The position numbers and the translations under genes are program-made. The notes beneath the pieces are model-generated. The model ran no database searches. It worked only from the letters and a program-made list of their open reading frames with translations, and had not been told where the DNA came from. This document shows, piece by piece, positions 3,258-50,849 of a stretch of DNA of 64,000 bases; the stretch's first letter is position 1, and each line of letters opens with the position of its first letter. The DNA is from an uncultured bacterium (lineage in GTDB: Bacteria > Patescibacteriota > Minisyncoccia > Phycocordibacterales > Phycocordibacteraceae). The stretch is from NCBI GenBank assembly GCA_903825105.1, contig CAIJZI010000008.1:8401-72400 (forward strand), written 5' to 3'.

Positions 3258-4295
3258 ATGGGAAGAATTATAAAAAATTGGCCCATAACTATTGCAACGC
3301 TATTTTCGCTGTTTTTAATTGTCGGTGCCTTTATTCTCGCGCGCGACGCGATTTCGCCTTCAGTCGTTCAAGCATCGACAGAAACCGCTTTGTTGAAGGC
3401 AATAGCGACAAAAGATTCTACGGGTGACGGCTTGCCAGATTGGGAAAAGTCTTTGTATGGCATTCCGCTTAATGCGACAACTACCGATTATTTTAATCTT
3501 GGGATGACAGACGGCGAAGCTGTCGCGAGAGGGCTTATTGTCCCAAGGGCGATTGCTGATATTAAAGTCGCTGCCTCGCCAACAACCTCGTATGATTTAA
3601 ATGATGATTCTCTGCCACCAGCACCAGCTGATGATACGCTCACAGCCGCATTCGCGAAGAATTTTATGACGCTTTATCTTTCTGCAAAAGAACAGAATGG
3701 TGGAGCAGACCTTTCTGAAAGTGATATAGCCAATCTTTCAAAACAAGTGATGGATTCTCTCACTTCATCTATCTCTGTTGCCCCTGACTTTAAGTCAGCA
3801 AAAGATATAAAAGTTTCAGGGTCTGGTGCGGATGCGCTCAAAGCCTTTGCAGTAAGTGCAGAAGCTGTCTTCGCAGCTAATCAGAGTAGTGCCACGACAA
3901 GCGAATTATTCTATCTACAAAATGTGGTTCAAAATAACGATAATTCAGCCATTCCGTATCTCATTTCTCTCGCGAAATCTTATAGAAATAACGCAGTCGG
4001 GCTCTCGACACTGCTTGTGCCACAAGAGCTAGCTTCTGATGATCTCGCTATTGTGAATGCATTGATGCGAATAAGTGGAATCACGAGCGATTTTGCCCGC
4101 GTGAATGACGATCCTCTCGCGGCGATGCTCGCTCTTAATCAGTATCCAGGCGCAGTGTTAAATCTTAAAAATGCTTTTACAAATATAGGAAATATCTATA
4201 AAACAGCGGGTATTTCTCTTAAGGCGGGCACACCCGGCGCGTCATTTGTAAATGTGATTGGTAAAGTTAATGCAAAGCAGCAAGAAAAGATATGA
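3258..4295 (+). CDS. hypothetical signal-anchored extracytoplasmic protein (345 aa) with DSTGDGLPDWEK thrombospondin-type-3-like Ca-binding motif
   Basis: N-terminal TM helix WPITIATLFSLFLIVGAFILA, then Ala/Ser/Thr-rich extracellular region; first gene of an operon-like run with overlapping stop/start codons. Confidence 0.55.
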   Translation: MGRIIKNWPITIATLFSLFLIVGAFILARDAISPSVVQASTETALLKAIATKDSTGDGLPDWEKSLYGIPLNATTTDYFNLGMTDGEAVARGLIVPRAIADIKVAASPTTSYDLNDDSLPPAPADDTLTAAFAKNFMTLYLSAKEQNGGADLSESDIANLSKQVMDSLTSSISVAPDFKSAKDIKVSGSGADALKAFAVSAEAVFAANQSSATTSELFYLQNVVQNNDNSAIPYLISLAKSYRNNAVGLSTLLVPQELASDDLAIVNALMRISGITSDFARVNDDPLAAMLALNQYPGAVLNLKNAFTNIGNIYKTAGISLKAGTPGASFVNVIGKVNAKQQEKI

Positions 4296-6094
4296 AAAAA
4301 CAACTTAAAAGGGACATTTTGATAGCATCAACAGCGTTCACATTTTTTGTCGCGTCATCAGTATTTTTTATGTACCCACAAAAGGTTAGGGCGGGGGGAA
4401 TCCCTGTTTACGATCCTCTTAATCACATCGTAAATGTCATTACTTCTATCGCTGCGCCAATCACTTCAGCGTCTACACTGTTGTCCCAAATCAACTCCTA
4501 TGTTCTTCAGCCAATCGCGCTTACCTTGTCTGGGAATATATTGAAGTCGATGACGGCGAGCGCGACTTCATTTGTCAACGGGAAGAGTAATGGCACCGGT
4601 ATGCCGCAGTTTGTCACCAGTCTCCAAAACCAGTTACAGAAGACGGGAGATGTGCAGGCGCTTGCCTTCTTTTCGAATCTGAAAAATTCTAATTCACCAT
4701 TCGCGGCCTCAATCACCTCTTCTTTGAAAAATAAGTATCTCGAGAGTACCAGTCTTGCCGGGTTCTTCTCTGCGAATCAGTGCACGCTTTCTAAATCTTC
4801 TAAAAACATAAACTCTTTTCTCGCGGGTAATTGGTCTCAAGGAGGTGTCGGTGCGTGGCTCTCTCTCACGACACAAGATCAAAACAATCCCTACACGCTC
4901 TATGAAAAGGCACAGAACCAGCTCGCTTCTGTGGTAAACGCTGCACAAACAGAGAAGACCACACAGCTTAACTGGGGGCAGGGAATGCTCTCATGGTGTG
5001 GAAATGTATCGAGCTCGAGCTCTGGCTCTACGGGTGGTTCTGTGGATCCAACTTCAAGCACAGTAGACACACAAATAGACATGACTTGTTCTAATAACCA
5101 ACAGTGTCCAGGAGTTCTCGTGTGTATTTCTGGTAAATGTATAGACGATCCATTGACTACAACTTCAAGCACAATAGATACGCAAATAAACAATATAAGT
5201 ACAAAAAATCTAGATTTAAGCAATGTTAAAAACGACATCAATTCTGCTGCCTCCGCAAAATCCTTAAGCGCAGGGGACCCGTGTACCAAGAAAGATGGCT
5301 CCCCGGGCCAAATAAAAACGCCAGGCTCGGTTATTTCAGGCGCTCTTGGCAAAGCGCTCGGCGTCGAGCAGGATAAGCTCGCTCAACTAGGTAGTGCAGG
5401 CACAGAAATAAATAAACTTATGTCGAGTGTCGGGGATGTGCTGAAGTCGATGTCTATAATGACGAGTGTCGTCAACGGAGCTACTGGCGGGCTTCTTGGC
5501 GTTACCAATACCTCTGCTACCGACAGAACCTCTGAATTCTCGCAGTATGATTCAAGTGGATTCTTGGGCGCAACAGCCACCACATCAACAAAAAGTACTG
5601 ATAGCTTCGCTGTCTCTCCTTCTGTAATGACGAGTAACATCGCGCGGTATCAGGCGGCATGGAACACTATCAGCACAGCGGCGAACACTGCATCCACAAC
5701 AGTGGCGAGCCTTTTAAACACTTGTGCATCAAGCGCGAGCGAAGCACAGACCGCGCTCGATACAGAAATCGCTCCCGTTTTGAAACATGCTGCCCAAGCA
5801 ACGGTGAATATTTCACAAGCGAATGACCTACTACAGCAGATCCAAATTGATTTAGAAGACAATTCTTCTGGCACAGCATATACCAGTGATATGGTGACGC
5901 TTCAGACGACACCGCCGACGAGTGCGGATGTTTCGAATGCAGAACAAAATGCTCAAATTACAGAGTTCGCGACAACAGCAGACCCTAATTCGACCAATTC
6001 TCTCACTGTTTCTGGGGCGTCAATCCTCGACCAAATGATTCTTCTCACAACGAATGCCAACGCGCTCAAGGCCTCCTGCGGTTCTGGTATATGA
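4292..6094 (+). CDS. hypothetical secreted protein (600 aa); mature N-terminus GGIPVYDP (TrbJ/VirB5-like), two copies of a Cys-rich C-x6-C-x5-C-x3-C module, S/T-rich
   Basis: N-terminal TM/signal; IPVxD start followed by helical segments; TCSNNQQCPGVLVCISGKC module; start codon overlaps the upstream gene's stop. Confidence 0.6.
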   Translation: MKKQLKRDILIASTAFTFFVASSVFFMYPQKVRAGGIPVYDPLNHIVNVITSIAAPITSASTLLSQINSYVLQPIALTLSGNILKSMTASATSFVNGKSNGTGMPQFVTSLQNQLQKTGDVQALAFFSNLKNSNSPFAASITSSLKNKYLESTSLAGFFSANQCTLSKSSKNINSFLAGNWSQGGVGAWLSLTTQDQNNPYTLYEKAQNQLASVVNAAQTEKTTQLNWGQGMLSWCGNVSSSSSGSTGGSVDPTSSTVDTQIDMTCSNNQQCPGVLVCISGKCIDDPLTTTSSTIDTQINNISTKNLDLSNVKNDINSAASAKSLSAGDPCTKKDGSPGQIKTPGSVISGALGKALGVEQDKLAQLGSAGTEINKLMSSVGDVLKSMSIMTSVVNGATGGLLGVTNTSATDRTSEFSQYDSSGFLGATATTSTKSTDSFAVSPSVMTSNIARYQAAWNTISTAANTASTTVASLLNTCASSASEAQTALDTEIAPVLKHAAQATVNISQANDLLQQIQIDLEDNSSGTAYTSDMVTLQTTPPTSADVSNAEQNAQITEFATTADPNSTNSLTVSGASILDQMILLTTNANALKASCGSGI

Positions 6095-8829
6095 TTATGA
6101 AAAAAATTCTCACGCTTTCATTCTTCGCTCTCGCACTATCTATTTTTGTATTTACATCTGCTGGTCACGCTCCGAGCGTGCATGCGCAAGCTGTTTGCAA
6201 GATAAATGCAGATTGTGCTACAGACTTCGTCTGTGCTTCAGGTACTTGTGTCCCACTATCAACAACTTCATCAATAATAGATACACAAATAGATACAACT
6301 TGTGCGAATGACCAGCAGTGCCCCGCAGGTCTTGTTTGTACCTCAGGTAAATGTGTAGACTCTGGCACTGACTCTGGCACTGCCGCGGCTTCTGCGAAGC
6401 CTGCCAGCGATGCGGGCACGAAGAACCCGACAAGTAATTTGCCACAGCTGCAAGACACCAGCGGAGCTCTCGGCTCGGTGATGAAGTACATAATGACCAT
6501 ATTCGCGTGGCTTCTCGGTATCGCTGCGATCACGCTCGATAATGCGGTCTACTACACCGTCATCACGATGGGGAATTATGTAAGCAATTTAAATGCCATC
6601 GGAGTAACTTGGCGCATACTGCGAGACATTGGCAACATTGCCTTCATCTTTGGATTTTTGATGATCGGTATCAACATCATTTTAGGTACCAACTTATACG
6701 GATGGGGACAAAAATTGATCTCGACGCTTCTTATCTCAGCGATTTGTCTGAACTTCTCGCTCTTCGCGACAGAGGCGATTATCGATGTGGGGAACTTATT
6801 CGCGACACAATTTTATACACAAATAAACGGTGGAGTGCCGGCACAGTCGACAGATCTTTTAAGCGCGAGCAATATTAATAATGAAGTCATTTCGAATAAA
6901 ATATTGTCCCAATTAGGGCTCGCGACTATTTATGGCAGGGCACTCACCAATACTGATGGATTCTTAGCGAATTCCACCGCGACAACGCTTGTCAGCTTTA
7001 TGAGCATTATCTTATTCCTTATCGCGGCGTTCGTGATGTTCTCGCTCGCTTTTATCCTTATCGCGCGGTTCGTTATTCTTATTTTTGTCATTATAGTTTC
7101 TCCTATTGCTGTAGCAGGGTTCGCTATACCTCCACTCGCCAAGCTTAAAGACAGTTGGATGAGTGCTCTCCTTGGGGAGACAATGACTGCGCCAGTACTC
7201 CTATTATTGTTGTATGTCGCTCTGGCTATTATCACGGATGCAAAATTTCTCGCTTTTGGTTCAGACAAGGCGGATTGGCTAGGCTTTGTAGAAAGTAGCG
7301 GTGGGGCAATGAATCTGACCGGCATGGCGGGGCTTATTCTCTCATTTATTGTAGCGATGGGGCTCCTGCTCGCTGTGGTTATGTATTCTAAAAAGCTCGG
7401 CGCCTTCGGCGCGAGCTGGGCATCGAAAACAGCGGGGAAGTTAACCTTCGGCGCGACCGCCTGGGGGATGCGACAAACAGCCGGAAGAGCATCACAACGA
7501 TTGTCGAATTATACTCGTGCGAATTTTGGAGGCAGTGTTCTCGGGAGAATTACTGCTGGTGGTTTCGACAAGGTCGCGGCGGGGAGTTTCGATGTACGCG
7601 GGTCGAATGCGTGGATTTCTGGGACGAAGGCTCTTGGCGGCGTTGAGGCTGGGGAAGCACAGAAGGGTGGCTTTAAAGCAATGCGGGATAATACAGTTAA
7701 GGAACACGAAGCATATCTTAAGACGGTCACTTCAGCGATTGAAGATAAGAATCTTAAAAAGACAACGGCAGCTGCGCAGGCACGAGATGTTGCTGAGGCA
7801 GCAGCAGCAAAAGAATTCAAAGAAGTAGAAGAACCGATAAAAGATATTAATAAAAAGATTACCGCAAACAATGAAGAGATTGGGAAATTAGAGAAAGCAG
7901 AAAAAGGTCTAGCCCCTCTCGTCGAAACGCAAAAGAAGGCAAGTGAAAGTTTCCAAAAAGCTGACGCAAAATTTGTACAAGCAACAGCAGAAAAAGAACA
8001 AAAAGAAAAAGAACAAGCAACGGCGCAAGAACAAAAAGCTGCTATTGAGGCTGAGCAAAATACGGCAGAAACAGAAGTCGAGAAGAAAAAGGCAGAAGTC
8101 GCGAGCTTGTTAGAAGCCAAAGAACGAGAAGAAAAATTCTCTCCAAACGGCAGAATGACCGAAGAAACTGAAAAGAATCTCGCGATTGCCCAGCAGAATC
8201 TCGCGGCTTCTCAAGCAGCTCTCACTGAAGCGGATGGTCGCCTAGAAAAAGCAGCAAAAGAGCTTGATGAAAAGGAAAAGGCTACAACAATAGCGGCTGG
8301 TAATCATAAAACAGCAAGAGAAACCAGAGAATCCGCTGGAGAAAGCCTTCGTGGAGTCACGGAAAAAGTTTCGAAAGAAGAGGAAAAACATAAACTCGGG
8401 ACACTCGACCAAGTTACTGGAAAATTAGCTACTTCTAAGGAAGATCTCGAAGCAAATAAAGGCGAATTACAAAAGAAGTCGAAGACACTCAATGAATTAA
8501 AAGGAAAGCTCAAAGATGCTGTCGACGCAGAAAAGAAACTGAGCGGCGAAATATCGGAAAAGCAAAAAAAGGCACAAGAAGGATATGCCAGCAGTATTTC
8601 TGGAGTCATGGGTCTCGCGTATGGTCCTGGAGGCGGCATTGCTGCTAAGAAGATAATTAAAGGAGCGATTAAAAAAGATAATAGTCTTGATAAGATTAAG
8701 AAGTTATTGGGAGAAAAAAGCGAAGATGATATGCTCGCTGATGCATACAAAGCGCAGTTAAAAAAACAAGTTGAAGAAGAAGCTGAAAAGACAGCAAAAT
8801 CAGCAGAACCGGCCGCACCAACTGCTTAG
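6091..8829 (+). CDS. large polytopic membrane protein (912 aa) with N-terminal Cys-rich module, at least 6 TM helices and a 450-aa KEKE-rich cytoplasmic coiled-coil tail; VirB6/TrbL-like architecture
   Basis: Signal peptide; TCANDQQCPAGLVCTSGKC module homologous to the upstream gene's; hydrophobic block about aa 130-430; long E/K-rich coiled coil. Confidence 0.65.
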   Translation: MIMKKILTLSFFALALSIFVFTSAGHAPSVHAQAVCKINADCATDFVCASGTCVPLSTTSSIIDTQIDTTCANDQQCPAGLVCTSGKCVDSGTDSGTAAASAKPASDAGTKNPTSNLPQLQDTSGALGSVMKYIMTIFAWLLGIAAITLDNAVYYTVITMGNYVSNLNAIGVTWRILRDIGNIAFIFGFLMIGINIILGTNLYGWGQKLISTLLISAICLNFSLFATEAIIDVGNLFATQFYTQINGGVPAQSTDLLSASNINNEVISNKILSQLGLATIYGRALTNTDGFLANSTATTLVSFMSIILFLIAAFVMFSLAFILIARFVILIFVIIVSPIAVAGFAIPPLAKLKDSWMSALLGETMTAPVLLLLLYVALAIITDAKFLAFGSDKADWLGFVESSGGAMNLTGMAGLILSFIVAMGLLLAVVMYSKKLGAFGASWASKTAGKLTFGATAWGMRQTAGRASQRLSNYTRANFGGSVLGRITAGGFDKVAAGSFDVRGSNAWISGTKALGGVEAGEAQKGGFKAMRDNTVKEHEAYLKTVTSAIEDKNLKKTTAAAQARDVAEAAAAKEFKEVEEPIKDINKKITANNEEIGKLEKAEKGLAPLVETQKKASESFQKADAKFVQATAEKEQKEKEQATAQEQKAAIEAEQNTAETEVEKKKAEVASLLEAKEREEKFSPNGRMTEETEKNLAIAQQNLAASQAALTEADGRLEKAAKELDEKEKATTIAAGNHKTARETRESAGESLRGVTEKVSKEEEKHKLGTLDQVTGKLATSKEDLEANKGELQKKSKTLNELKGKLKDAVDAEKKLSGEISEKQKKAQEGYASSISGVMGLAYGPGGGIAAKKIIKGAIKKDNSLDKIKKLLGEKSEDDMLADAYKAQLKKQVEEEAEKTAKSAEPAAPTA

Positions 8830-8862
8830 GCGACGCCGCCAGCACCATAAAATTTAATCACT

Positions 8863-9624
8863 ATGGACACACAAGAACCAACACTCGATGAAAGTATCCA
8901 GCAGGTGATGCAGACCTTGCCGCCCGTGATTCGTGATTATCTTTCAGCAGGGAAGTACACAGAGGTTGCGAAAGGTTTAATCACGAAATATGGGCTCCAT
9001 GTCGATCAGGGAGGCATTCTCGAACGCGAGATAATGTTGCTTTTGATGGGTATCGAGAACCCAACAGAATTTATAAATGCGCTTATTGAAGAGGCGAAGC
9101 TCGATGCGAAGGTTGTAGAGAACATTGTGAAGGATGTGAATGACCAAATCTTCGCTCCACTTAAAGAAGCAGAGATGAAGAGCGACACTACCGAGCCAGA
9201 GCCAAGTCATTTTCATTTAGAAAATAAAATTCCTCATCCAGTTCCTGCGCCAGTGAGAAATGAGATTCACCACCCGCCACTCGGGCCCGCGGCAGCCGTC
9301 ACGGCGCCAGCTCCTGCCATTACTCCTGTTGAAGCGCCCAAACTCTTGGCGGAGGAGAAGCTGCTTGAAGACCATGAAGAGCCGCATCTAGATGTAAGGG
9401 ATAAGGTGCAAGCCCCGACGCAAGAAGTCGTGGCCCCGACCGGGAGCGTCGGGGGTATAAACTTAATACCCTTTCCGCCGAAAAAGATTGTGCCACCACC
9501 CCATCCTTTGCCAGAGGCTACGGAGGGCACAGCAGAAAAACCAATTTCTCCGACTCCACCTAAAGTCCCGCCACCTCCAGTCAAACCGTATTCAGTTGAT
9601 CCTTATCGCGAACCGATCGAATAA
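8863..9624 (+). CDS. hypothetical protein with globular N-domain and proline-rich C-terminal half
   Basis: ORF with in-phase codon usage; PxP-rich low-complexity C-terminus; last gene of the envelope cluster. Confidence 0.5.
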   Translation: MDTQEPTLDESIQQVMQTLPPVIRDYLSAGKYTEVAKGLITKYGLHVDQGGILEREIMLLLMGIENPTEFINALIEEAKLDAKVVENIVKDVNDQIFAPLKEAEMKSDTTEPEPSHFHLENKIPHPVPAPVRNEIHHPPLGPAAAVTAPAPAITPVEAPKLLAEEKLLEDHEEPHLDVRDKVQAPTQEVVAPTGSVGGINLIPFPPKKIVPPPHPLPEATEGTAEKPISPTPPKVPPPPVKPYSVDPYREPIE

Positions 9625-9649
9625 AACATCGCGGTGGCAAGTGCTGGGG

Positions 9650-9678
9650 TTGCATTTTCTCAGCAATTCCATTATATT
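9650..9678 (+). promoter_or_regulatory. sigma70-like promoter TTGCAT-N17-TATATT for the rpsL-rpsG unit
   Basis: Hexamers read directly from the sequence; a leader hairpin GACCCctgaGGGTC plus U-run (9685-9709) lies between the promoter and the rpsL ATG. Confidence 0.5.
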
Positions 9679-9711
9679 GTTCTTGACCCCCTGAGGGTCT
9701 TCTTTTTCTAA

Positions 9712-10119
9712 ATGTCCACCATCAATCAACTTTCTCGAAAGGGCCGAAAGAACAAAGCGTCTAAGACGAGCGTGCTCGCGCTTACCCGCGGTTTTAATAC
9801 ACTTAAGAATCGACCGACTTTTTATCCGTCTCCGTTTAAGAGAGGGGTCTGCACCAAGGTCACGACCAAGACGCCTCGTAAGCCGAACTCCGCTATTCGA
9901 AAGATCGCGCGCGTGCGCCTCACGAACGGTATGGAGGTCACAGCTTACATCCCAGGCATCGGGCACAACCTTCAGGAACACTCAGTCGTTCTGCTTCGCG
10001 GTGGCCGTGTTAAGGACATCGGCGTGCAGTACACGATCGTTCGCGGGAAGCTCGACACAACTGGCGTCGACAAACGCCGCAAAGCGCGCTCACGATACGG
10101 AGCGAAGAAGCCGAAATAA
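9712..10119 (+). CDS. rpsL: 30S ribosomal protein S12
   Basis: MSTINQL...PKKPNSA...RGGRVKD canonical S12 sequence. Confidence 0.97.
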
Positions 10120-10159
10120 TCTTTTATTTTTAAATATTTAAACATTTAAATATCTTTAT

Positions 10160-45737: not shown

Positions 45738-47489
45738 TTATTTTTTATTATTTGCGAAAAATGGCCAAACAGTGTCAGTCACTCGATACCATGACGCGAC
45801 AGTCGCGAAACGATCTGATGGCGTAATAATCTGTGGCAATGAAATGCCGTGAAGATTTTTTGGAATCGTATAAACAAAGTCAGGCGCGTACAAAAATGCG
45901 GCAGGATAATCAGAAGCAATCGCGTTCTCAATTTTTTGGAGATCAGCAGTTCGCGTGCCTTGGTCTGTCGAGCTACGAGCGTCTTCAAGTAGGGTGTCTA
46001 CCGTCTTATTCGCATAAAGCGCAACATTCAGTCCAGGATCGTTCTGTTCTCGCGAATCCCAAAAAGCGTACAAATCTTGATCGCGTCCGATAACTTCTCC
46101 GTAGAGAAGAGCTTCGTATCTTCTCGATCTGATCACATTCTGCGAAAGGTCGCCAGATTCGTATAGCTCAATAGTAACCGGAATGCCCAATTTCTCCAAA
46201 TCGGTCTTTACCGCAGTGGCGACATTTTTTAATTCAGGAACATTCGAGGTTCGTAGCGTGATGCCCTCAAGGGTCTGTTTCGCTCCCGCGTTTTTCCAGA
46301 TGCGCGCAGAGCCGTCATATAACCAGCCCGATGTCTCGAGCACGGTGGCAGCAGCTTCTGTGTAATCTCCAAATTGAACAGGCACCTGCTTCACTAAACC
46401 ACCGGGAGGAACGGGACCCATAATCGCGGTCGCATGGTCGCTCAAAACATTTTCGACAATATTTTGGCGGTCGATCGCGAGCGACAACGCTTTTCGCACT
46501 TCGATTCGCGAGAAAACTTTGTTCTGACTCGGATTCCAAAACACGCCGAAGATACGGGCGTAGGGAGCAGTCAGTTCGGTGTCGGATGGGACATCGTATG
46601 CACTCTCGACAGCTCCACTCGAAACAGCGTTCGCGAGATCCTCACTATTTGAATAGAAATTAAAATTAATACCGTTCAAATATGGGCGGCCGAGCGCATA
46701 ATATTTATTTTGTGCGAAGGAAACGCCTTGGATAAGGCCAGAAGAGTTTCGCGAGACGCTGGTTACCTTAAATGGCCCGGCGCCAACAGGACTTGTTTCA
46801 AGTGTTGAAAATGAAAATTCTTCATCTGAAATATTTTGCCACAAGTGCGCCGGGAGAATACCAAGGGTTGTGAGCTCGAGGAAAGGCGCATAAGCCTTTT
46901 GAAGAGTGAACTCTACCGTGTGGGCATCAAGCGCTTCGACGCCAATGCCAGACCAGTCAGCATATTCAGGACTCTTTAATCCAGAATCCTGTGCCTTTTG
47001 AATCGTGAAGACAACATCGTTTGCTGTTACGCTCGTTCCGTCAGAGAACTTCGCATTTGGGCGTAGGGTGAAGGTGTAGGTCTTTCCGTCTGGTGACTCT
47101 GTGTAGCTTTCTGCGAGCACGGGCACCAGATCTCCCGATCCAGAAATGCCCATAAGCCCAGCATAAGCGAGTGCCGAGAGGTCGCGATCTGCATCGGTTA
47201 TAGCGAGAAGGGGATTAATAAACTGCGGACTGCCGACCTCTCCTTCGGTGAGCGTCCCGCCGTATGCCGGCACCTGAACAAGGAGAGATTTCTCGAGCGA
47301 ATAGAGTCCTGAAAGGGTGGCGATACAAACAAGCACGATAAGTGTATAAAAAATAATAGTATCGCCGGGAGAAAACGAGTTGACGCGGTCACCGAGCTTG
47401 TCGAAAATAGAAACGGTACGCACGCGAGTAAGACTCTCGCGCATTCGGGCGCGCCGCTCGTCAGAAATCAGATTTCTAACGGAGTTCAT
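45738..47489 (-). CDS. ABC transporter substrate-binding protein, family 5 (peptide/nickel), membrane-anchored
   Basis: N-terminal TM anchor; SBP_bac_5-like length and motifs. Confidence 0.75.
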   Translation of the reverse strand: MNSVRNLISDERRARMRESLTRVRTVSIFDKLGDRVNSFSPGDTIIFYTLIVLVCIATLSGLYSLEKSLLVQVPAYGGTLTEGEVGSPQFINPLLAITDADRDLSALAYAGLMGISGSGDLVPVLAESYTESPDGKTYTFTLRPNAKFSDGTSVTANDVVFTIQKAQDSGLKSPEYADWSGIGVEALDAHTVEFTLQKAYAPFLELTTLGILPAHLWQNISDEEFSFSTLETSPVGAGPFKVTSVSRNSSGLIQGVSFAQNKYYALGRPYLNGINFNFYSNSEDLANAVSSGAVESAYDVPSDTELTAPYARIFGVFWNPSQNKVFSRIEVRKALSLAIDRQNIVENVLSDHATAIMGPVPPGGLVKQVPVQFGDYTEAAATVLETSGWLYDGSARIWKNAGAKQTLEGITLRTSNVPELKNVATAVKTDLEKLGIPVTIELYESGDLSQNVIRSRRYEALLYGEVIGRDQDLYAFWDSREQNDPGLNVALYANKTVDTLLEDARSSTDQGTRTADLQKIENAIASDYPAAFLYAPDFVYTIPKNLHGISLPQIITPSDRFATVASWYRVTDTVWPFFANNKK

Positions 47490-47725
47490 GATCCTGCCAG
47501 AAGGAAGTTCGTTATTGCCGCGAGTACGAGAAGAACTGCTATGACGATTGTCGCGGTGAATATAAATTTCTCGGCGCCTCTGCGTTTATAAAAAGTTGAC
47601 GCGAAATTGTCGCCTCCGAATGCTCCGCCTAGTGTCGCGCCGCGCTGTTGGAGCACGATGCCGACGATGAGGAGGATCGAGAGAGCGATTTCTGCGTATG
47701 GTAGTGCCGATACGAGTGCCTTCAT
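47486..47725 (-). CDS. secG: preprotein translocase subunit SecG
   Basis: 79 aa; LLIVGIVLQQRGATLGGAFGG matches the SecG signature; ORF trimmed to MKALVS. Confidence 0.7.
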   Translation of the reverse strand: MKALVSALPYAEIALSILLIVGIVLQQRGATLGGAFGGDNFASTFYKRRGAEKFIFTATIVIAVLLVLAAITNFLLAGS

Positions 47726-47764
47726 CTGTACGGACAAGGATAGCATAAAGAGGGGAGTGAGCGC

Positions 47765-47801
47765 AACCCCGTAAAGTTGATTACAACCACGGGGCTGCGC
47801 G
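47765..47801. repeat. 35-bp direct repeat copy 1 (CCCCGTAAAGTTGATTACAACCACGGGGCTGCGCG), internal hairpin
   Basis: 31/35 identical to the copy at 48250-48285. Confidence 0.7.
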
Positions 47802-47844
47802 GCTGGTGTGTAAAGATGTAAATGTATAAAAATATAAAATGAAA

Positions 47845-47886
47845 AGCGCCGCCTGTCGCAACATCCGTAGATGTTGGCAGGCGGCG
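47845..47886 (-). terminator. strong intrinsic terminator for the minus-strand small peptide gene
   Basis: 18-bp imperfect inverted repeat GCGCCGCCTG.CAACATC / GATGTTGGCAGGCGGCGC followed, on the minus strand, by TTTTCATTTTATATTTTT. Confidence 0.7.
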
Positions 47887-47901
47887 CTGATTGATGGCGA
47901 A

Positions 47902-48078
47902 TCAGTGTGACGGCCAGATCGCCATCACGATGGCCGCAGCAGAGGCGGCGATGCAGAACCACCCTGTGAAACACTCCGAAACGGAACGATTTTTTGCAGT
48001 GATGTTTTCCAAACCGCACATCCCGAGTCTGAGAAACAAAAGCACCACGATAACCCGCACAGCAATTTCGATAATCAT
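47902..48078 (-). CDS. small hydrophobic peptide (58 aa, MIIEIAVRVIVVLLFLRLGM...)
   Basis: GGAGGAG SD 8 nt upstream; consensus promoter TTGACA-N17-TATGCT at about 48139-48166 (minus); dedicated terminator; two hydrophobic segments. Confidence 0.5.
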   Translation of the reverse strand: MIIEIAVRVIVVLLFLRLGMCGLENITAKNRSVSECFTGWFCIAASAAAIVMAIWPSH

Positions 48079-48214
48079 GATGTGTTCTCCTCCGGCGCAA
48101 GCAGCGCCAATTTCAAAATTCGTACATCCCGCATATAAGCATAGCAAATTGCAAGCCGTTTGTCAAGCTCTTGGGCGTGGTTCAGAAAAGGTAGTAAATA
48201 CCTCATAAAATTTA

Positions 48215-48233
48215 ACATAGGAAATTCCTATGT
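48215..48233. promoter_or_regulatory. perfect 19-bp palindrome ACATAGGAAATTCCTATGT (candidate operator)
   Basis: 9-bp perfect arms; lies upstream of the -35 of the small-peptide promoter. Confidence 0.45.
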
Positions 48234-48249
48234 ATTGAAATCGCGTAAA

Positions 48250-48285
48250 GCCCCGTAAAGTCGATTACGACCACGGGGCCACGCG
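48250..48285. repeat. 35-bp direct repeat copy 2
   Basis: See copy 1. Confidence 0.7.
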
Positions 48286-48361
48286 ACAAATCAAAACGCC
48301 GCGTTTCTGAAGAAACGCGGCGCTATTCTTAGCTGTCTCACGACGCTGGCTGATGAAAGTC

Positions 48362-48712
48362 TCAGTCTTTTAACTCCGGTTCGTCCAGAACCGGAACAAT
48401 GTCCCCGCTCATGTCCAGCATGAATCCTGCCGGGAGATCAACTCCTGTGACCGGAAGAGCGTAGATCCTCTTGCTGTGGTTACATTCCTGGATCATTGCT
48501 AATTTCACCATGACGGTCGAGTTTTCAAGCGTGACGGTTGCGCGAGAAAGTACCCGGTACTTTACTCCACGACTGAGTTTGTCCTCAAGGATTCCGAATG
48601 TGGCGACCTTGCCTTCGCCGCTGAGGTATCCTCGCCAATAGAAGAAAAGAACGACGATAACCAGAATCACATAAAACCACGGGTCATAAAGCATTTGATT
48701 GTTCACAAGCAC
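48362..48712 (-). CDS. hypothetical membrane-anchored protein (116 aa)
   Basis: N-terminal TM; dedicated terminator at 48296-48330 on the minus strand. Confidence 0.4.
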   Translation of the reverse strand: MLVNNQMLYDPWFYVILVIVVLFFYWRGYLSGEGKVATFGILEDKLSRGVKYRVLSRATVTLENSTVMVKLAMIQECNHSKRIYALPVTGVDLPAGFMLDMSGDIVPVLDEPELKD

Positions 48713-48850
48713 CTCCGTGCCATTTCAATTAAACTCACATCCAAAACTAGTCTAACGACCTAATTTTGATTTGTCAACTTGATTCAAGGCAGTAATTTCT
48801 CTATACTCATCTGCACTTGGGCGCGATTATTAGCTTTACATTCGATAAAT

Positions 48851-49159
48851 ATGGCAAAAAGATTTACCTTGAAGCCCTTGGGCGATCGGATTATCGTGAG
48901 ACCATCTGAAAAAGAAGGCGAGAAGAAGCTCGCTTCTGGAATTATTCTCCCCGAAGCGGCGAATAAAGAAAAACTTATAAAAGGTGAGGTCGTCGCTACC
49001 GGCCCGGGGCGGAAGAATGATGATGGGAAGCGCCTCGAGCTCGAAGTCGAGATCGGCGACACGGTATTTTTCAAAAAGCCGTGGGACGAGCCGATTAAAA
49101 TGGACGATGTCGAGTACTACATCCTCTCTGAATCAGACATTCTCGGCACTTTGGATTAA
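48851..49159 (+). CDS. groES: co-chaperonin GroES
   Basis: LKPLGDRIIV...GEVVATGPG; promoter TTGATT-N17-TATACT upstream; no CIRCE recognised. Confidence 0.95.
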   Translation: MAKRFTLKPLGDRIIVRPSEKEGEKKLASGIILPEAANKEKLIKGEVVATGPGRKNDDGKRLELEVEIGDTVFFKKPWDEPIKMDDVEYYILSESDILGTLD

Positions 49160-49211
49160 TTTTTTTATTTCTTAAACCTTAAACCTTAAACCTTATCCCT
49201 TAAACCTGTAA

Positions 49212-50849
<1,638 letters not shown>

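Follow-up and report, generated by a model that had tools for sequence, protein, structure and literature searches.

A lineage-restricted small membrane-protein gene and an uncatalogued family of REP-like hairpins in the groES-secG gap of a Kaiserbacteria-like genome

We analysed the gap between groES and secG in a 64,000-nucleotide stretch of DNA (contig CAIJZI010000008.1 of assembly GCA_903825105.1, positions 8,401 to 72,400; hereafter the window) from a Kaiserbacteria-like member of the candidate phyla radiation (CPR). Positions 47726-48850 probably represent a strain-specific mosaic filling of this gap, made up of independent peptide modules and of hairpins that resemble repetitive extragenic palindromic (REP) elements. 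What is new here is a lineage-restricted small membrane protein and an uncatalogued REP-like hairpin family, both of known kinds. An initial annotation of the sequence had recognized most of the individual parts, and had likened the whole, two terminal direct repeats around the gene of a 58-aa hydrophobic peptide, to a type I toxin-like or small bacteriocin/holin-like module or a miniature integrative cassette. The parts were borne out by our analysis, the cassette was not.

The start-to-start distance between groES and secG is 1125 nt in the window, versus 116-148 nt in seven related loci in which the two genes are divergent neighbours (L012-L015 and L025-L027; loci used for comparison carry the prefix L) and 4292 nt in a further relative, L016. 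Because the seven relatives keep only 116-148 nt, we regard a 116-aa membrane-protein gene, two hairpins (A and B), a palindrome and the peptide module as a lineage-specific filling of the gap. On the minus strand the order is 116-aa gene, terminator, hairpin B, palindrome, promoter, 5′ untranslated region (UTR) with a stem and a Shine-Dalgarno (SD) sequence, 58-aa open reading frame (ORF), terminator, hairpin A and secG (Table 1). The repeats and the peptide gene had been placed between secG and a membrane-protein gene. The gene on the far side does encode a membrane protein, the orphan of 116 aa, but the context has to be corrected, since the 1.1-kb block as a whole lies between secG and groES.

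The 58-aa ORF is present as described, except that its start codon lies 2 nt from the position implied earlier, and the near-consensus promoter, the SD sequence and the 18-bp-stem terminator followed by a U-tract were all found at or near the places reported. A word-indexed search with the peptide recovered nothing beyond an identical copy encoded on a same-strain contig of 1.5 kb, whereas a phmmer search against 1.84 billion representatives gave a single full-length homologue, P0123 (62 aa, 51% identity, E 3.9e-8). P0123 is encoded directly upstream of secG on contig L020, and the two secG genes share 92.9% nucleotide identity. L020 keeps both promoter hexamers (identical), the TG extension, the SD sequence and the 5′-UTR stem, which differs in loop length only and which, when folded, leaves the SD sequence unpaired in both homologues. 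Conservation between the two proteins covers the helix at the N-terminus (EIA[IV]R[IV]I.V..FL) and, at the C-terminus, both helix and tail (GWFCIAAS.A.IVMAIWPSH), and the loop diverges. Accordingly distributed is the ratio of non-synonymous to synonymous change (dN/dS, Nei-Gojobori) for this pair: 0.19 overall, 0.05 in the last 20 codons, which encode the C-terminal helix, and 0.39 in the loop. Judged from these comparisons the ORF is a genuine translated gene under purifying selection, narrowly distributed and autonomous; the suggestion of a tightly signalled gene for a small membrane peptide, independently transcribed and with two helices, has thus gained a syntenic homologue. The 58-aa protein, small and hydrophobic, had no match in Pfam, NCBIfam, PHROGs or PADLOC, and in the same collections the best profile for the 62-aa homologue was the CLC_0170 family at 16.9 bits, below the cut-off of 30. 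The terminator that follows the 58-aa gene (47835-47890) resembles the one that precedes the homologous gene in L020 (positions 140-215); they share the motif CGCCGCCTGCC...GACAGGCGGCG and then TTTT.ATTTTT.TATAC. That a terminator after one gene should resemble a terminator before its homologue suggests that modules are reshuffled at terminators.

The two direct repeats (47767-47801 and 48251-48285) are identical at 31 of 35 positions and each has the internal CCCCGT...ACGGGG hairpin that had been noted. They consist of a 28-nt core and a tail of 7-8 nt and measure about 36-45 nt with tail and outer stem. In both folded cores a foot of 6 bp (CCCCGU/ACGGGG) is followed by an AAA bulge and by an apical stem of 4 bp with the loop AUUA, a single C lying on the 3′ side, and the fold z-scores are -3.8 to -5.6 on either strand. 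The apical stems of A and B form a compensatory pair (GUUG/CAAC against GUCG/CGAC). The core pattern has exactly two matches in the 64-kb window and none in 100 shuffles, and a covariance model of 15 family members, run with filters off, retrieved the same two copies only. Each hairpin stands just 3′ of an intrinsic terminator, and A stands also directly against the -35 hexamer of secG. Hairpin B is nested (48244-48285): the 28-nt hairpin takes the place of the apical stem-loop of an outer unit of like design, GCGU-AAA-G[...]C-C-ACGC, an arrangement that looks like a copy constructed within another copy. The only match at gathering level in the window with Rfam 15 was a tRNA-Ser, and at permissive thresholds positions 47700-48360 and the loci L003, L006 and L007 gave chance-level matches only and no hairpin family.

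Comparison with three relatives separates the hairpins from the peptide modules. L020 has the homologous peptide module with a hairpin on neither side, and the arrangement ...ACACCAG-CCGCGCAG-[28-nt hairpin]-TTGCGC of the window corresponds there to ...ACACCAG-GG-TTGCAC. L003 has hairpin A, 28/28 identical and with identical flanks, though its secG is only 85.8% identical at the nucleotide level. It is without the ~40-nt piece that contains hairpin B between the homologous terminator and the conserved palindrome, and between the palindrome and hairpin A it has a small ORF of another kind, which IS30 interrupts, and another promoter (TTGGCA-N17-TATGTT). In L018 the slot is occupied by a 48-aa two-helix peptide that likewise has a promoter (TTGACA-N17-TATGTT), a GGAGGA and a terminator of its own, and a hairpin is absent; BLASTP detected no relationship between the 58-aa and 48-aa peptides. 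Because L020, L003 and L018 each combine them differently, hairpins and peptide modules vary independently, and the presence or absence of the hairpin varies among close relatives with flanking genes unchanged. By this comparison the bracketing seen in the window is that of two separate hairpin copies, each just after a terminator; they are not the ends of a cassette.

The hairpin is found well beyond this genome. When 185,579 species genomes were scanned with CCCCGTAAAGNNNATTANNNCCACGGGG, one locus was retrieved, L002, from a different Kaiserbacteria metagenome-assembled genome; its apical stem, GCUG/CAGC, is a third compensatory variant, and its tail is again CCACGCG. In a metagenome collection a somewhat looser pattern gave eight loci, so that the pattern scans yielded 9 distinct loci in all, and in these the free inner positions always pair (GCGA/UCGC, GCCG/CGGC, GCCC/GGGC, GUGC/GCAC, GAGC/GCUC). 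With a loose regular expression, extra copies that the scan pattern had not demanded were found in L005, L006 and L007. In L005 (900-1200), the 180 nt before a 23S rRNA gene contain three copies, each followed by TAAAAT; the 2.4 kb of L006 hold four full copies and a fifth cut at the contig end, with hairpin pairs on both sides of a 116-aa membrane-protein gene; and in L007 three tandem copies lie between a hydrolase gene and ndk. The loosely found copies all have CCCCGU, an ARA bulge, one unpaired 3′-side base and ACGGGG or GCGGGG, while apical stems (3-7 bp) and loops vary freely. All 15 copies adopt the same fold, are 28-31 nt long and are intergenic. In their alignment 96.6% of cells pair, as against 40-50% when the partners are slid, and double-sided changes occupy 22 cells versus 8.3 +/- 2.0 in shuffles. 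Neither the apical covariation nor the extra neighbouring copies were forced by the search pattern. The contigs span 42-63% GC, with gene content that is CPR-typical (L005, L008) or not CPR-typical (L004, L007). Within each locus all copies share one orientation. In the window, L003 and L002 they are antisense to all neighbours, each 8-55 nt past an intrinsic terminator; in L005-L007 they are in the sense orientation, so orientation relative to genes is inconsistent overall. No copy was found in viral contigs, in plasmids or in about 60 kb of related Kaiserbacteria loci, and a literature search with the hairpin sequence returned unrelated primer matches only. As judged from the common fold, the hairpin is a family of the form CCCCGU-ARA-[covarying stem-loop]-N-ACGGGG, uncatalogued and wider than this genome. 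The initial annotation had conceded that its reading would fall if the repeats were a genome-wide REP-type element unlinked to the peptide. The family is indeed wider and has no association with the peptide; it is not, however, abundant in the 64-kb window.

Other identities for the hairpin were considered and set aside. A k-turn, a group II intron domain V, a CRISPR repeat, a dif/Xer site and CIRCE were each rejected on inspection of the sequence. Pairing of the tail with the target flank as a guide was also dropped as a general rule, as the tail extends the stem in A, B and L004 and not in the other 12 copies. Some of the hairpin-bearing contigs have further features of their own. The 23S rRNA gene of L005 has insertions that encode LAGLIDADG-type proteins, a trait typical of CPR. 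L006 is densely modular, with small genes; repeated in it as well are a 30-bp perfect palindrome (CCATTATAAAAGATTAATCTTTTATAATGG and a variant), a TATCCTAAACCC motif before each hairpin cluster and a GAATTCAAGCC motif. L002 contains on its minus strand (4075-4362) an apparent initiator tRNA-fMet (GCGGGG...CU / CAUAACCUCG...CCCCCGCAACC), missed by ARAGORN, whose anticodon loop is interrupted by a group I intron; the latter scores 44.2 bits (E 5e-10) with Rfam Intron_gpI, slightly below the gathering score. The hairpin copy of L002 lies ~55 nt past the terminator of this split gene.

We propose that each peptide module is self-contained, with its own promoter, SD sequence, ORF and intrinsic terminator. 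The 58-aa gene would be transcribed as a monocistronic mRNA from its near-consensus sigma-70-type promoter and translated from the exposed GGAGGAG. A helical hairpin in the membrane is the predicted form of the protein, which may act there by specific helix-helix contacts with another membrane component; the synteny with secG is a lead only for its function. The hairpin copies come and go as clean indels, independently of the peptide gene. The most likely mechanism would be that of a REP: an enzyme acting in trans would recognize the conserved foot and bulge and copy the hairpin in its folded, single-stranded form, and once inserted the hairpin would be at most an extra stable stem-loop between transcription units.

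Several points weigh against this account. No Y1/HUH transposase was detected in the window or the fetched loci, in what was a weak test. Two copies in 64 kb, and none in ~60 kb of related loci, are far below REP densities, and the clustered hairpins are all head-to-tail, which is rare for REPs (PMC3733652). The perfect match of hairpin A in L003, set against the 85.8% identity of secG, may reflect a function at the sequence level or recombination rather than mobility. The invariance of foot and bulge is partly by construction, because the collecting pattern fixed them. As for the peptide, the estimate of selection rests on one pair, because only one homologue was found. A more far-reaching version of the account strikes us as improbable: the hairpin would be an undescribed miniature structured mobile element of CPR and unrelated phyla, inserted as clean 28-45 nt units after terminators or against promoters, with a foot and bulge read by an enzyme not yet linked to it, and in parallel the groES-secG gap of Kaiserbacteria would be a dedicated exchange site for small membrane-peptide modules.

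The same foot and bulge across contigs of such different GC and unrelated gene content, together with the covarying apical stem, could also mean that the hairpin is a cis-acting RNA or DNA site bound by a conserved host factor (in processing, antitermination or transcription), functional rather than selfish or mobile. The three sense copies before the 23S rRNA gene and the three before ndk fit such a site, as do the perfect conservation of hairpin A in L003, where the flanks diverge by about 30%, and the single U-G pair, which is tolerated on the CCCCGUAAAG strand only. However, the hairpin is antisense at some loci and sense at others, copies occupy places past terminators and ahead of promoters that should see little transcription, presence and absence differ between close relatives without change in flanking genes, and there was no Rfam match even at permissive thresholds. 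We regard a cis-acting site as unlikely. Turning to the peptide, its size and pronounced hydrophobicity, its strong promoter, structured 5′ UTR and own terminator, its narrow phylogenetic range and its position in a variable hotspot would all suit a type I toxin, or another membrane-damaging peptide (holin, bacteriocin), checked by an antisense RNA. A consensus scan nevertheless found no consensus plus-strand promoter between 47800 and 48250. The SD sequence is unpaired in both homologues, unlike in the usual translation-blocked type I toxin mRNAs, and there are two helices instead of the usual one. The peptide matched none of the toxin, holin or defence families and has neither a double-glycine nor a signal leader, and the strong constraint on the C-terminal helix (dN/dS 0.05) suits a specific partner better than non-specific membrane damage. 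We consider such a toxin or membrane-damaging peptide quite unlikely. A mobile mini-cassette (integron-attC-like or IS200/IS605-type) with the peptide gene as cargo and the hairpins as its recombination ends is very unlikely. In its favour, the repeats are co-oriented imperfect hairpins with extrahelical bases, one follows each gene on the minus strand like an ORF-attC array, hairpin pairs flank a 116-aa membrane-protein gene in L006 and the secG 5′ region is a true integration site in L016 (a 3.3-kb integrase element with duplicated secG promoter and start), but L020 and L018 have their modules with zero hairpins, L003 keeps hairpin A and the supposedly internal palindrome with other cargo and without hairpin B, there is no R″/R′ integron core (RYYYAAC/GTTRRRY) outside the variable stem, the hairpin is half the minimum attC length and a weak probe search saw no integrase or Y1 transposase at the locus.

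The mosaic filling that we favour has further parts. The 116-aa protein belongs to no Pfam, PHROG, NCBIfam or PADLOC family and matched only itself among 5.8 billion proteins. In L018, the promoter at the position homologous to that of the 116-aa gene drives the 48-aa peptide. The perfect 19-bp palindrome had been correctly described; in L003 it is kept with one central change and lies 7 nt upstream of a different promoter. Folded as RNA it reaches only -8.6 kcal/mol, and four matches in viral contigs were taken as chance. Between the window (48290-48360) and L003 (60-170), a 3′-UTR block (CAGCGTCG.GAGAC.GCTAAGAATA), the terminator and the palindrome are conserved and the upstream coding sequence differs; the two terminator stems differ by compensatory changes.

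secG, an SBP_bac_5 gene, groES and groEL are ordinary conserved genes around the locus (Pfam scan of flanking genes). The secG product has 1558 homologues, the closest of which are named Kaiserbacteria/Paceibacterota; those at ~90% identity are named Kaiserbacteria, Paceibacterota or Parcubacteria, which marks the organism as a member of the CPR. The arrangement TTGCRC-N17/18-TGcTAT(C/T)(C/G)T-...ACAGATG at secG is also seen in L003, L012, L018, L019 and L020, and the stretch (C/T)ACAGATG before secG is kept in all of these relatives (window 47726-47766). The secG mRNA is probably near-leaderless, because the -10 element is only 11 nt from the ATG and there is no SD sequence. In L016, from a 993-kb genome, the gap (5825-10131) holds a ~3.3-kb element with genes for a tyrosine integrase, a Y-family DNA polymerase and an S24 (LexA/UmuD-like) peptidase and a 52-aa ORF, bounded by a direct repeat of 37 nt in which the -10 region and the first codons of secG are duplicated. 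It has the look of an integrative element that enters at the 5′ end of secG and regenerates the gene. Because it sits between the duplicated promoter and start, we consider the DNA upstream of secG a hotspot. The insertion in L003 (270-1270) is of the IS30 family, with a 324-aa transposase and 14-bp inverted repeats (AATTAGGACACTCG), and lies inside the small ORF. The contigs L001, L011 and L020 of close relatives stop a few to ~170 nt from the hairpin or the secG-upstream region, which would fit strain heterogeneity at the slot that interrupts assembly. Some contigs whose secG proteins are nearest to that of the window by protein identity (P0003-P0005) end directly upstream of secG.

Table 1. 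Features of the groES-secG gap and of the adjoining secG gene, in positions of the window.
Feature	Position	Strand	Remarks
secG	47486..47725	minus	Pfam SecG, E 7.7e-11; conserved anchor gene bordering the variable slot
Putative secG promoter	47737..47766	minus	-35 TTGCGC (47766..47761), 18-nt spacer, extended -10 TGcTATCCT (47745..47737); read from sequence
Hairpin repeat A	47767..47802	plus	28-nt two-tier hairpin (47767-47794) and tail CTGCGCGG; abuts secG -35 hexamer
Intrinsic terminator of 58-aa gene	47835..47888	minus	18-bp interrupted stem (47888..47845), then U-tract; -35.1 kcal/mol, z -7.9
58-aa two-helix membrane-protein gene (MIIEIAVRVIVVLLFLRLGM...GWFCIAASAAAIVMAIWPSH)	47902..48078	minus	ORF and homologue P0123
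Peptide-gene 5′ UTR	48087..48131	minus	SD GGAGGAG (48093..48087) and stem GGCGC-loop-GCGCC (48108..48094)
Peptide-gene promoter TTGACA-N17-TATGCT with TG extension	48138..48166	minus	10/12 consensus match
19-bp palindrome ACATAGGAAATTCCTATGT, operator-like	48215-48233	strandless	9+1+9; unique in window
Hairpin repeat B	48244..48285	plus	28-nt hairpin (48251-48278) within outer layer GCGTAAAG...CCACGC of like design
Intrinsic terminator of 116-aa gene	48295..48324	minus	13-pair stem and T-run; -22.6 kcal/mol, z -4.4; homologous terminator in L003
Orphan 116-aa membrane-protein gene	48362..48712	minus	first module of island
Promoter of 116-aa gene, TTGACA-N17-TAGACT	48749..48777	minus	divergent from groES

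CPR bacteria have tiny genomes, and their small proteins and repeats are little known. The locus yields a small membrane protein, backed by a syntenic homologue and purifying selection, that is largely overlooked by annotation. In close relatives, hairpin repeats, peptide modules, IS30 and an integrase element have all entered the DNA upstream of secG. Rfam lacks the hairpin family, whose core is common to contigs that differ greatly in base composition and in gene content; should the family be mobile, REP-like elements would extend to CPR and a mobilizing enzyme not known at present would be implied. The locus answers no long-standing question directly.

Type I toxins are small hydrophobic proteins that are toxic when expressed and are paired with an overlapping antisense RNA under its own promoter. 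With them and with other small hydrophobic proteins the 58-aa protein shares a length of <60 aa, hydrophobicity, its own promoter and terminator and restriction to a lineage; it differs from them in its two helices, its exposed SD sequence, the lack of a detectable antisense promoter and the lack of a family match. In integron cassettes, too, a gene is followed by an imperfect palindrome that folds and keeps one orientation; its ends are conserved, its centre varies and some of its bases are extrahelical. Their attC sites, however, are 57-141 nt long with R″/L″-L′/R′ boxes (RYYYAAC...GTTRRRY), whereas the hairpin has 28 nt and no such conserved boxes. The modules described here differ further in having their own promoters and terminators, no intI/attI and a peptide module that exists without hairpins; beside the array, the ORF list for 46500-49800 contains no integrase, the Pfam scan having covered the flanking genes only.

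IS200/IS605 elements (e.g. IS608) and the non-autonomous palindrome-associated transposable elements (PATEs) have near-identical imperfect subterminal hairpins on one strand, which read as direct repeats, as they do here. The foot of the IS608 hairpin is CCCC...GGGG. A GC foot and an extrahelical 3′-side base are common to the hairpins of IS200/IS605 and hairpins A and B. In IS200/IS605 elements or PATEs the ends and the interior move as a unit, whereas here hairpins are gained and lost separately (L003, L020) and there is no tnpA/tnpB.

The closest match is with REP elements, specifically the bulged GTAG-3 / group-2 type of enterobacteria mobilized by TnpA-REP (RAYT), with which the hairpin shares the two-tier bulged design, size, extragenic site and clustering. 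In the bulged REPs of enterobacteria, unpaired di- or trinucleotides separate the conserved lower stem from an upper part that varies but is self-complementary; REPs are 20-50 nt long, extragenic, mostly located just downstream of genes and often clustered, and their subfamilies differ by complementary changes in the stem (PMC3733652; PMC8266576). In REPs a conserved tetranucleotide, mostly GTAG, stands unpaired as a 5′ tag before the palindrome, whereas here the GTAR motif lies within the stem and bulge, with GU paired to AC; it reads GTAA, or GTAG in two of the 15 copies, is invariant in position, spanning lower stem and bulge, and no conserved tag exists outside the stem. REPs reach ~100 or more copies per genome, versus two in the 64-kb window, both at this locus, although L006 has five in 2.4 kb. 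Inverted pairs (BIME/REPIN) are frequent among REPs, whereas the hairpin clusters are head-to-tail and never inverted. A REP/RAYT genome also contains the cognate tnpA-REP (Y1 HUH) gene, usually flanked by REPs; tblastn with IS608 TnpA and Escherichia coli RAYT sequences gave nothing below E 0.2 in the window or the loci. We do not file the hairpin as a REP because its GTAR lies inside the stem, its copy number is very low, its copies are head-to-tail only and no Y1/HUH gene is visible. By analogy it may nonetheless work like one, and, unlike a REP, the same hairpin core occurs both in CPR and in unrelated GC-rich contigs.

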